This document shows positions 8,911 through 37,488 of a DNA stretch of 37,921 nt, piece after piece. This stretch comes from a virus, in UHGV virus genome UHGV-0081762; one strand, given 5' to 3'. The notes under the pieces were generated by a model. It was not told where the DNA came from and did not search any database. It saw only the letters and a list, made by a program, of their open reading frames with translations. Each line of letters opens with the position of its first letter. The stretch's first letter is position 1. The translations under genes and the position numbers were made by a program.

Positions 8911-9261
8911 GTAGATTATTTTTGTTGCGAATACTTCGCCTTTTACGATGGCTGTTATGATATTTTTAGCAACATCTTCTGATGCACCAACCTTGATAAG
9001 GTCAGCAAGTATTTTGTTATTTACTTCTTTCCGGTGAGCTTTATCCTTTGCTCTACGCTCTTCTTCGTCCTTGATTCTTTTTTCTTCTGCTATTCTGGCT
9101 TGCTCTTTTGCTTCAGCCTCGCGACGGATTCGTTCAGCCTCCTCCTGTGCTTTTCTGCGTTCTGCTTCAATTGCTGCCTGCTTTTCTCTTTCAGCTCGTT
9201 CTGCTGCCTCTTTTGCTTCGCGCTGTGCTCGTTGCTCGGCTTGCCGTCGTGCAGCTGCACT
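8911..9261 (-). other. Start-less 117-codon open frame (Glu/Ala/Arg/Lys-rich, low-complexity) in the expected N-gene position immediately downstream of nutL
   Basis: Minus-strand frame open from in-frame TGA (9262-9264) to TAA (8908-8910) with no ATG/GTG/TTG; translation SAAARRQAEQRAQREAKEAAERAEREKQAAIEAERRK...KIIY. Confidence 0.4.
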
Positions 9262-9292
9262 TCACGTCACCCCAAAGCCAACTACTCTTTGG

Positions 9293-9335
9293 TTCCCGCA
9301 TTTCGGCGGGACAATCCCATCAATGTTAAAGAGCC
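9293..9335 (-). promoter_or_regulatory. nutL-like site (boxA GGCTCTTTAACA, boxB hairpin TTCCCGCCGAAATGCGGGAA)
   Basis: boxA-like motif and hairpin identical to the boxB-like hairpin after cro. Confidence 0.65.
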
Positions 9336-9379: not shown

Positions 9380-9470
9380 AAGAATACTGTAGGTATTTTA
9401 TTGTGTAAATACCCAAGGTATTTATTTTTGGTGAAATAATGATAAGCAAATGAATACAAAGGATATTTAT
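9380..9470 (-). promoter_or_regulatory. oL/pL region with three 15-bp operators of form AATAC-N5-GTATT
   Basis: AATACTGTAGGTATT (9383-9397), AATACCCAAGGTATT (9418-9432), AATACAAAGGATATT (9453-9467). Confidence 0.6.
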
Positions 9471-9554
9471 TTTTTTCGGTGTCTGCTTGTTCAGTGCTTT
9501 TTATGCGGGATATGTGAAGTGGATCCCGATAGCTATTGCTGCCGGGATTATGGG

Positions 9555-9944
9555 TTAGTCAGCGAAGGTTAAGACGAGAATTACCTTAATGATGTCTGCT
9601 ACAACAGACACGGCCATAGATAAACCAAAGACAATCCAAGCCATAGAGATGTCTTCACTACCATCGTATAGAGTTCCGTAATCACTGGTGTAAGGCGTAA
9701 ATGTCGCGCCTTGATACAATAGGTATAAGCTTGATCCATAGAGAATAAATGCAGATATCCCTTGTATTGCCATGATCACCAGAATCATGAAACGAGCTGA
9801 TCTATGCGCCCAAGCCTGGCTTATTTTTTCTGATAGAGATTTCGCAATAAAAGCATGCGCTAAGCCGTAAATTGTCGAGATTGCCAACATCCCAAAAAAG
9901 CTTGCTATAGCGGTTCCAACCATAAGCGCCCCTTGCGTGATCAA
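9555..9944 (-). CDS. Small integral membrane protein (about 4 TM segments) co-transcribed downstream of cI (rex/sie position)
   Basis: 129-aa ORF, ATGA overlap with cI stop; hydrophobic segments. Confidence 0.6.
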   Translation of the reverse strand: MITQGALMVGTAIASFFGMLAISTIYGLAHAFIAKSLSEKISQAWAHRSARFMILVIMAIQGISAFILYGSSLYLLYQGATFTPYTSDYGTLYDGSEDISMAWIVFGLSMAVSVVADIIKVILVLTFAD

Positions 9945-10657
9945 ACCAGCCTTAGTTTTGTCTCAATTGCAACGCCTATAATCTTGCAGTTTCCATTGAT
10001 TGGCACGAGAGGCCATGCAGGGTTAAGTCCCTTGAGGTATTTATTTCCGCCGTCGATTATCAGCTTCTTGAATGTTGCTTCGTTAGAGTCAGAAAGTTTT
10101 GCTATGACCAAGCTGCCGTTGATCGCCTCCCTTCCGGTATCGAAAAGAACGAATGTTCCCTCTGGAATGCTTAACCCAACCGGTGCCGTCATTGAATCAC
10201 CTTCCACTTTAAGCCAAAACGCATTACCTTGAATATGCGCGTCAGACTCAAGCCAAACATCTATGTCTTTAATGGTGTATGGTTCGCATGCTTCACACCA
10301 CGAGCCAGCCTGGATACTGCTTAACACCGGATACCTCTTTCCTGCTCTGTATTCCCCTGCATACCTTACGTTGGCATCGCTCTTAAGGCTTTCTGCCTGT
10401 TCTGCAACCTTGGCAGCAATTGACTGGCTAAAATCAGCAATTGAGACTTGCAACAATCGTGCAAAACCAGATGCAACCTCAACGTTTAGCGCATTTCTGC
10501 CATTAAGATAATGCCCTACCGCTCCTTGGGTGATACCCAGTTCATCAGCGATTGAGTATTGGGTTATTCCCAATTCTTTCTTTTTTGACTCATACAAAGC
10601 CTTAAGCCGCTTAGCGTCTTCCAGCTGTTCTGTCGTCAGTGATTTTTTATTTTCCAT
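9941..10657 (-). CDS. cI: CI-type repressor (HTH plus S24 LexA-like peptidase domain)
   Basis: 238 aa; N-terminus TTEQLEDAKRLKALYESKKKELGITQ closely resembles lambda CI; C-terminal FWLKVEGDSMTAP and FKKL motifs. Confidence 0.9.
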   Translation of the reverse strand: MENKKSLTTEQLEDAKRLKALYESKKKELGITQYSIADELGITQGAVGHYLNGRNALNVEVASGFARLLQVSIADFSQSIAAKVAEQAESLKSDANVRYAGEYRAGKRYPVLSSIQAGSWCEACEPYTIKDIDVWLESDAHIQGNAFWLKVEGDSMTAPVGLSIPEGTFVLFDTGREAINGSLVIAKLSDSNEATFKKLIIDGGNKYLKGLNPAWPLVPINGNCKIIGVAIETKLRLV

Positions 10658-10763
10658 AGCTTAATTCTAATAGCTAAGGTACTTAAACTAAAAATACCCT
10701 GAGTATTGATTGCTTTGAATACCTGTAGTATTCTTTATTCATGGTTAATAACGGAGAGTGCAT
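10658..10763. promoter_or_regulatory. oR/pRM/pR divergent control region with three AATAC-N5-GTATT-type operators
   Basis: AATAGCTAAGGTACT (10669-10683), AATACCCTGAGTATT (10693-10707), AATACCTGTAGTATT (10718-10732); candidate pR TTGATT-17-TATTCT. Confidence 0.6.
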
Positions 10764-18234: not shown

Positions 18235-18309
18235 GGGTCAGTCGTATAAAGGTCATTACGGAAGGCTGTTAACCTTCTTATCGTGGTTCGAGTCCACGCT
18301 GTCCCGCCA
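18235..18309 (+). tRNA. tRNA-like gene, probable anticodon GUU (Asn); one acceptor-stem and one D-stem mismatch
   Basis: Hand-folded: acceptor GGGTCAG/CTGTCCC, anticodon stem GAAGG/CCTTC with loop CTGTTAA, T-arm CGTGG-TTCGAGT-CCACG, GCCA end. Confidence 0.45.
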
Positions 18310-18314
18310 AATAT

Positions 18315-18390
18315 GCTGGTTTAGCTCCAATGGTAGAGCAGTCGCCTTGTAAGCGAATGGGTAGCGGTTCAAGTCCGTTAACCAGCACCA
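18315..18390 (+). tRNA. tRNA, probable anticodon UGU (Thr)
   Basis: Hand-folded: acceptor GCTGGTT/AACCAGC, D-arm GCTC-CAATGGTA-GAGC, anticodon loop CTTGTAA, T-loop TTCAAGT, ACCA end. Confidence 0.6.
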
Positions 18391-36800: not shown

Positions 36801-36820
36801 ATAGCGCAGGGATGCGCTAT
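36801..36820. terminator. Bidirectional hairpin between convergent tailspike and acetyltransferase genes
   Basis: Perfect inverted repeat atagcgc-aggga... gcgctat. Confidence 0.5.
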
Positions 36821-37488
36821 TCAACAATTTCACCGGATGGAAGAATTGTAAATCTCTTATAAGATGCCTTCTTTTTATCTTTTACAGCATTAAACTGCTC
36901 TAAAAAAGTAGTCGGTGTCCTTGTATCAATCCCAATAAATGAGCTTAAATCATATTCCCACCATTGGCTATCCAGTAACTCTTTGATGATTGATTCCTCA
37001 AATCTGTACCCTAGGTGTTTTGCAGAAACGCCACCTACGATTGAATATGGCTCGACATTTTTGGTGACAATAGCGCCAGCAGCAATAACAGCGCCAGTAC
37101 CAATAGTTATACCTCGCCTGATAACCGCATTTGCACCTATCCATACGTCATGACCAATTCTTGGTATACCATGCTTCTGTTGAGAGAGGTCGCGTTGCAT
37201 TCCTATACCATCAGGGATTTTAAAACCATTTTTTGAGCCAAAGAAAAAAGGATGCGTAGAAAAATACCCAGTTTCATGCTCGCCAAGGCCAATTTTTACT
37301 CCTGGAGCAACTGAACAAAATCTACCCATCGTAAAGCCGCCGAGCATACAATTAGCGCCAAAGTAGGAGAATGCTCCAACATTTATTGGGGCAACAACAA
37401 GACCTGAAGCATGAAAAAAACATTGCTCCTCGAAGCTAACTTTTGCTTGTGGAGTCATCTGAACGCTTAACATTGCATCAATCACCAT
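36817..37488 (-). CDS. Hexapeptide-repeat acetyltransferase, XAT family (CatB/Vat-like)
   Basis: [45 protein letters not shown] and [16 protein letters not shown] align with CatB-type chloramphenicol acetyltransferase as recalled. Confidence 0.7.

Follow-up and report, generated by a model that had tools for sequence, protein, structure and literature searches.

Among exclusion proteins, small polytopic proteins of the inner membrane are encountered repeatedly. RexB of phage lambda (144 aa, four transmembrane helices), known for the exclusion of T4 rII and other phages by membrane depolarisation, is encoded together with RexA in the slot that follows cI and precedes OL/pL. This slot, which was described as a hotspot for superinfection-exclusion or abortive-infection genes in an earlier note on the DNA analysed here, is indeed documented as variable: it holds rexAB in lambda, bstA, with high lysogenic expression by transcriptomics, in the Salmonella prophage BTP1 (PMC8585504), and two orphan genes, 44 and 45, in epsilon34 (PMC2629481). 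The slot is empty in P22 and mEp213. At another position, P22 encodes the superinfection-exclusion protein SieA, for which escape mutations of P22-like phages lie in the ejection proteins gp16/gp20. SieA is a prophage-expressed inner-membrane protein with three predicted transmembrane domains, by which DNA delivery is blocked (PMC10883804). SieB of lambda and P22 and Imm of T4 are further small membrane-associated phage proteins with a role in exclusion.

The gene described here fills the rexA/rexB slot, as the earlier note had placed it, in a lambdoid prophage on the UHGV virus genome UHGV-0081762 (37,921 nt; the whole stretch of DNA that was analysed, referred to as the window). It was identified as hkaS of coliphage HK620 (AF335538, AAK28867; PHROG 6534; RefSeq WP_000233126) with 96.7% amino acid identity. 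HkaS of HK620 represents the same gene, with the same length of 122 aa and the same slot between cI and OL, and differs from it in nothing material. The gene has been catalogued since 2001 as hkaS, and its product was labelled as 'unknown' or 'hypothetical' in all the records and sources examined. The literature was searched for hkaS and its accessions, for HK620 together with rexB, for the carriers HK140, HK630 and mEpX2, and for immunity groups that exclude T4rII; no study of hkaS was found.

Gene identity and translation start

An open frame of 129 codons was located at 9555..9944 on the minus strand, directly 3' of a lambda-type cI (9941..10657). The frame itself and its hydrophobic character (by hydropathy analysis) were confirmed as described in the earlier note. 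The start given there, an ATGA overlap with the stop codon of cI through which both genes would be translationally coupled, did not survive inspection of the junction. The last codons of cI are GTT TGA, and the mechanical frame is opened by a TTG at 9942..9944 (minus strand), which overlaps the cI stop codon as TTGA and is not a conserved start. The whole junction reads ...CTG GTT TGA TCACGCAAGGGGCGCTT ATG GTT GGA..., in which the first ATG (9923) stands 17 nt past the cI stop. The 17-nt spacer between cI and hkaS (9924..9940, minus strand) contains a Shine-Dalgarno (SD) sequence, AAGGGG (9929-9934), 5 nt before the ATG, which provides hkaS with a ribosome-binding site of its own. Coupling through an ATGA is not supported.

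The ATG at 9923 was taken as the real start for the following reasons: PHROG 6534, a 122-position profile aligned over positions 1-122 of 122, matched residues 8-129 of the mechanical frame (E 5.7e-79); a 369-nt gene starting from ATG is given in the HK620 record and by RefSeq for all three E. coli genomes that were checked; the TTG is put out of frame by the 18- or 19-nt spacers of near-identical E. coli alleles; and an in-frame TAA is present immediately 5' of the hkaS ATG in the Salmonella relatives. Judged from these comparisons, the start of hkaS is ATG 9923 and the protein is of 122 aa, and the coding sequence (122 aa plus TAA) was assigned to 9555..9923 on the minus strand on the basis of PHROG 6534, HkaS of HK620, the AlphaFold2 model and the dN/dS value. 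A TTG start with coupling by overlap was ruled out by the spacer lengths in the relatives. The practical value lies in a corrected annotation with an ATG start, 122 aa, three transmembrane helices and no overlap with cI.

An AAGG-type SD sequence was always present in the spacers of the relatives (17-20 nt). Among near-identical alleles, the spacer was of 17, 18, 19 or 20 nt, with a variable G-run within the SD sequence (GGGG, GGGGG, GGGGGA), and this variation could tune the translation of hkaS.

Organization of the immunity operon

The first gene of the immunity operon is cI (9941..10657, minus strand), encoding a repressor of 238 aa with HTH_3 and Peptidase_S24 domains (Pfam E 5e-24 and 8e-10); its DNA shows 98.6-99% identity to the immunity regions of HK620, HK140 and mEpX2. 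Beyond the divergent OR/pRM/pR region lie lambda-type cro and cII. The order of the module is cI, hkaS, a hairpin and OL3-OL1/pL, with hkaS as the sole gene between cI and the OL/pL operators. This agrees with the single membrane gene devoid of a RexA-like partner that had been noticed before: cI is followed directly by hkaS, and no other ORF is present in the operon.

A candidate -10 hexamer of pRM, TAGAAT (10664..10669, minus strand), was read from the sequence and ends 6 nt before the cI ATG (10655-10657). OR1 and OR2 were found as repeats, and OR2 (10693-10707) abuts a weak pRM -35. Since the hexamer ends so close to the ATG, a leaderless cI mRNA as in lambda is implied, and the arrangement thus implies a lambda-like pRM as far as promoter elements can be read. 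If the cI message is leaderless, the SD sequence of hkaS could allow this gene to be translated without dependence on cI, perhaps even with greater efficiency.

The scan gave no terminator-like site that would separate cI from hkaS on their strand, and because both genes share this strand, co-transcription of hkaS from pRM/pRE is to be expected. The same was presumed by the authors of the HK620 record, by whom tIMM was put after hkaS. Based on this anatomy, hkaS is probably co-expressed with cI in the lysogen.

A stem-loop (9523..9548, minus strand; dG -13.7 kcal/mol, z -2.9) is located 7-32 nt past the hkaS stop codon and carries no U-tract. The Hafnia-type, Salmonella and metagenome lineages also have a hairpin at this place after hkaS, and in the Salmonella and metagenome lineages its stem is unrelated in sequence. 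The stem-loop is a candidate for the 3' end of the cI-hkaS transcript, as a terminator or as a stabiliser. A scan for a canonical intrinsic terminator after hkaS gave none and found only this U-less hairpin, and a search of Rfam gave no match in the region.

Downstream of hkaS, three operator sites of the type AATAC-N5-GTATT were recognized (9453-9467, 9408-9422 and 9383-9397). The first of them, an operator-like site of the same repeat family that reads AATAC-N5-ATATT, AATACAAAGGATATT (9453..9467, minus strand), is a candidate OL3; it is 45 bp from OL2 and was present at this position in all four diverged loci examined. In the HK620 GenBank record, OL3 and tIMM are put elsewhere, at less consensus-like places (equivalent to 9429-9445 and 9442-9472, respectively). 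From the sequence and the HK620 annotation, OL1 (9383-9397), OL2 (9408-9422) and pL, with its -35 TTTACA (9404-9409) and -10 TATTCT (9381-9386), were assigned within 9381..9422 on the minus strand. They are followed by nutL (9295..9334, minus strand), composed of boxA GCTCTTTAA (9326-9334) and a boxB hairpin (9295-9310), for which nutL is annotated at the equivalent place in HK620.

Predicted topology and conserved residues of HkaS

Four transmembrane segments had been claimed in the earlier note. By the topology check, three hydrophobic segments were obtained with the Kyte-Doolittle method, and three long helices (residues 2-29, 41-74 and 89-121) with AlphaFold2. The AlphaFold2 model, built from an alignment of 8 sequences, had a mean pLDDT of 89.5 and a pTM of 0.76 and also contained a short amphipathic helix (31-38) and a beta-hairpin (78-86). 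The loop 28-44 is basic (K28, K33, R41, R44), the loop 72-92 is acidic (D81, D87, E90, D91) and contains neither K nor R, and the C-terminal tail (...LTFAD) is almost absent. Because of the distribution of these charges, an N-out/C-in orientation follows from the positive-inside rule, and HkaS is predicted by these models as an inner-membrane protein with three transmembrane helices in that orientation. A class I holin (three transmembrane helices, N-out/C-in) was considered in view of the similar topology but rejected, since the C-terminus ...TFAD has no basic tail and the gene lies outside the late lysis region.

In the HkaS family, 36 positions are invariant. The best conserved segment is the cytoplasmic loop with 9/17 residues invariant, among them K33, I34, W38, H40 and R44. 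Q54 is invariant in TM2, together with a YLLY..TF motif at the periplasmic end of this helix, and the invariant S106, D110 and K113 share one face of TM3.

Comparison with known exclusion and defence proteins

A likeness to RexB beyond that of a 'small membrane protein', as suggested in the earlier note, was not recovered by profile comparison, in which an hhalign probability of 0.6% was obtained and no Pfam RexB match appeared. The corresponding hhalign values against lambda SieB and P22 SieA were 1.6% and 0.3%, respectively, and thus no relationship was detectable with any of the three proteins. In Pfam at E<=1 there was no match to RexB, SieB or Imm, and only a sub-threshold match to TssN was returned. 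None of the families among the 5,027 defence-protein models of PADLOC-DB v2 was matched at E<=1. Sequence searches of NCBIfam and PDB with HkaS gave nothing, no viral structure was matched by Foldseek with an E value under 0.26, and the structure searches as a whole retrieved generic helical bundles only.

HkaS resembles lambda RexB in its slot between cI and OL/pL, in the presumed transcription from pRM/pRE and in being, by prediction, a small polytopic inner-membrane protein, but it is shorter (122 aa vs 144 aa), has three predicted transmembrane helices instead of four and is encoded with no RexA partner. The closest functional and mechanistic analogy would be that with P22 SieA, a small prophage-expressed inner-membrane protein with three predicted transmembrane segments, with which the topology predicted for HkaS agrees. 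SieA, however, is of 162-164 aa, has its own promoter and adjoins gene 16/mnt in the late region, and the comparison was made with the P22 type only, one of the three SieA sequence types (PMC10883804). BstA of BTP1 shares the slot, but HkaS differs from it as a predicted small membrane protein with no match in PADLOC. With the exclusion proteins SieB of lambda and P22 and Imm of T4, HkaS would have in common that all of them are small membrane-associated phage proteins; the gene for SieB belongs to the pL operon and is read from the other strand.

Carriers, linkage to cI and family size

The cI-hkaS-OL segment was 98.4-99.1% identical at the DNA level to that of 16 phage records, and this cI type was accompanied by hkaS in all of them (16/16). 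The carriers are HK620, HK630, HK140, mEpX2, HF4s, HZ41, phi296, phi367, 611R6 and two Stx2c-converting phages, and they include P22-like podoviruses and Stx phages, as well as HK630, HK140 and mEpX2, which we take to be lambda-like siphoviruses. The virions of the carriers being of differing kinds, the cI-hkaS module is not bound to any single one of them. In a set of 5,426 complete E. coli genomes, 146 contained cI and 146 contained hkaS, each at 147 places, so that hkaS is carried by 2.7% of these genomes, which are from many hosts. Both genes were adjacent in every E. coli hkaS match among the matches listed.

Homologues were identified with 82% identity as a Hafnia paralvei-type protein on metagenome contigs, 61% in Salmonella and 52% in a further metagenome contig. 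At every locus recovered for them, the gene stood 17-20 nt past a cI of 86-96% identity, and the same operators and an N gene came after it. Members of the family were obtained from E. coli, Salmonella, Enterobacter and Hafnia. By a word-indexed search of 5.8 billion proteins, only 12 clusters were retrieved, all from Enterobacterales, and by an exhaustive profile search of 1.84 billion representatives (at 50% identity), only 2 matches. With only 2 representatives matched, there are no remote relatives from which a function could be borrowed.

Placed between cI and the OL operators to which the repressor has to bind, hkaS is physically trapped in the immunity module and moves together with this module between phages, be they podoviruses, siphoviruses or Stx phages. 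The linkage to cI is to be expected from this trapping, and, perfect as it is, it says little about the function of hkaS.

Selection and damaged alleles

The dN/dS value was ~0.15 for hkaS and 0.03 for cI, at a dS of ~0.66-0.7, and the length of HkaS was exactly 122 aa in lineages in which synonymous sites are saturated (pS about 0.8). Because this length is fixed at synonymous saturation and dN/dS is ~0.15, hkaS is, on the evidence of these alignments, a real gene under purifying selection and not a chance ORF. Non-synonymous change was 4-5 times faster in hkaS than in cI, which is ordinary for a membrane protein, and positive selection was not demonstrated. The GC content of hkaS (0.417) is slightly below that of cI (0.453).

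Two types of damaged alleles were encountered. An A6 run in codons 32-34 (9824..9829, minus strand) is, by alignment, the site of a 1-nt deletion in HF4s, by which HkaS is truncated after residue 33. On either side of the run is an ATCAG repeat, the two being spaced by 33 nt (9830-9834 and 9797-9801, minus strand). In the 111-aa alleles, a 33-nt in-frame deletion removes EKISQAWAHRS, which represents the conserved cytoplasmic helix. Judging by the protein sequences and by the distance between the repeats, these would be the endpoints of the deletion. Products of 77 aa were counted in ~15 contigs and those of 111 aa in ~18, against roughly 800 contigs with intact alleles (each damaged type ~2%).

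Disruption of the ORF in near-identical prophages with no effect on fitness had been named in the earlier note as a finding that would speak against its proposal. Such disruption does occur, as a frameshift in the viable HF4s and in ~2% of contigs, but a lack of function is not shown by it. Since the phage with the frameshifted allele is viable, hkaS is dispensable for phage growth; it is nevertheless usually kept, as expected of an accessory gene. For experiments, the damaged alleles offer naturally occurring nulls or hypomorphs, and HK620, HK140 and mEpX2 lysogens are available as model systems.

Proposed role of HkaS

In the model that is tentatively preferred, hkaS would be the second and last gene of the cI operon in a prophage of HK620 immunity, sharing its transcript with cI, which would start at pRM in the lysogen and at pRE while lysogeny is being established, and translated from its own ribosome-binding site rather than through a stop-start overlap. 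The product would be placed in the cytoplasmic membrane with a periplasmic N-terminus, a basic cytoplasmic loop with the short amphipathic helix, an acidic periplasmic loop with the beta-hairpin, a very short cytoplasmic C-terminus and the invariant D110/K113 inside TM3. There it may act as a 'moron-like' accessory protein to the benefit of the lysogen, in the most probable version by excluding superinfecting phages or defending against heteroimmune ones, as it might do by hindering DNA entry across the inner membrane. This reading as a whole, a cI-operon accessory inner-membrane protein most likely engaged in superinfection exclusion or defence, is given a chance approaching, and not reaching, an even one. 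The anti-phage role taken by itself, argued from position and analogy, is possible but should be regarded with slightly more reserve than that. Should a role of HkaS in exclusion or defence be demonstrated, a sequence-unrelated single-gene family would be added to the few repressor-linked prophage defences (rexAB, bstA), and a gene that about 2.7% of complete E. coli genomes possess, and that Stx2c-converting phages are among those to carry, would receive a function; otherwise HkaS is an ordinary hypothetical membrane moron.

An abortive-infection effector in the manner of RexB, that is, a membrane channel that depolarises the cell on infection, either by itself or through a sensor encoded by the host or at a distant locus, would suit the slot and the presumed promoter, which are those of rexAB, and the conserved polar or charged residues Q54, S106, D110 and K113 within the transmembrane helices would suit an oligomeric pore. 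Such an effector is nonetheless decidedly improbable, given the hhalign probability of 0.6% against RexB, the failure to match Pfam RexB and PADLOC, three transmembrane helices in place of four and an operon with no RexA-like gene; a constitutive pore former with no sensor would also need some other gating. A contribution to the phage's own lysis-lysogeny circuit, for example by modulating FtsH/HflKC (CII/CIII stability), repressor cleavage or envelope-responsive induction, would fit the transcription with cI at establishment and maintenance that the anatomy suggests, the cytoplasmic loop as the best conserved segment (9/17 invariant) and the association with a single lineage of cI that extends over E. 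coli, Salmonella, Enterobacter and Hafnia. That association, however, is explained by trapping between cI and OL, HF4s was isolated as a phage with its hkaS frameshifted, and hkaS is lacking in lambdoid phages of other immunity, the slot being empty in P22 and mEp213; as these phages do with no such gene, the circuit does not need a component of this kind, and a circuit role seems unlikely. Still more speculative, and put forward as a very slim chance, is the idea that HkaS is a membrane sensor partner of this cI switch, by which incoming phage DNA or envelope damage would be relayed to repressor activity or induction, or else the founder of a single-gene, sensor-less Rex-type abortive-infection family with on/off switching at the A6 run. 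A sensor partner of cI, if true, would explain both the association with a single cI lineage across genera and the best-conserved cytoplasmic amphipathic loop.

The superinfection exclusion or defence favoured above has also to be weighed against a conversion factor unrelated to phage, acting in tolerance to stress, colicins or antimicrobials or in the modulation of a transporter. Expression from the prophage is suggested by position, E. coli from many hosts carry hkaS (2.7% of complete genomes), and the gene is intact in the window though the prophage has lost N and is probably defective. One defective prophage is an anecdote, however, HkaS has no similarity to a known membrane regulator or resistance protein, and the known occupants of the slot are anti-phage systems, so a conversion factor of this kind is considered an unlikely explanation as well. 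That hkaS might be a functionless or decaying ORF, kept merely by its seat in the immunity module, would accord with the lack of a known function, the rare frameshift and deletion alleles and the GC content slightly below that of cI. This has hardly any chance of being correct and is largely refuted by the selection analysis, in view of the dN/dS of 0.15 and of 122 aa with 36 invariant residues at a pS of about 0.8, to which the conserved SD sequence and start and the confident AlphaFold2 model are to be added.

Other features of the prophage

No N antiterminator gene was found in the window by tblastn with nine N/gp24 proteins, and the prophage is probably defective for lytic growth, with cI and hkaS intact. 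Within 8911-9334, the nutL leader is fused, with the joint at 9240/9241, to the last 113 codons of an Sf6 gp33-like ('TolA/Agt-like') gene that has no start codon. The joint lies ~55 nt upstream of the position at which N starts in HK620, HF4s and mEp213, and the 9240/9241 junction was absent from the 5,426 complete E. coli genomes.

A hexapeptide-repeat acetyltransferase gene (36817-37488, minus strand) is located just after the tailspike gene and on the strand opposite to it, and is likely a gene for surface-polysaccharide O-acetylation (lysogenic conversion). At the left end, a tRNA gene (7-79) adjoins the integrase gene (97-1257) and matches the thrW-type attachment site annotated in mEp213, and two more tRNA genes are present within the prophage at 18235-18387, upstream of the late region.
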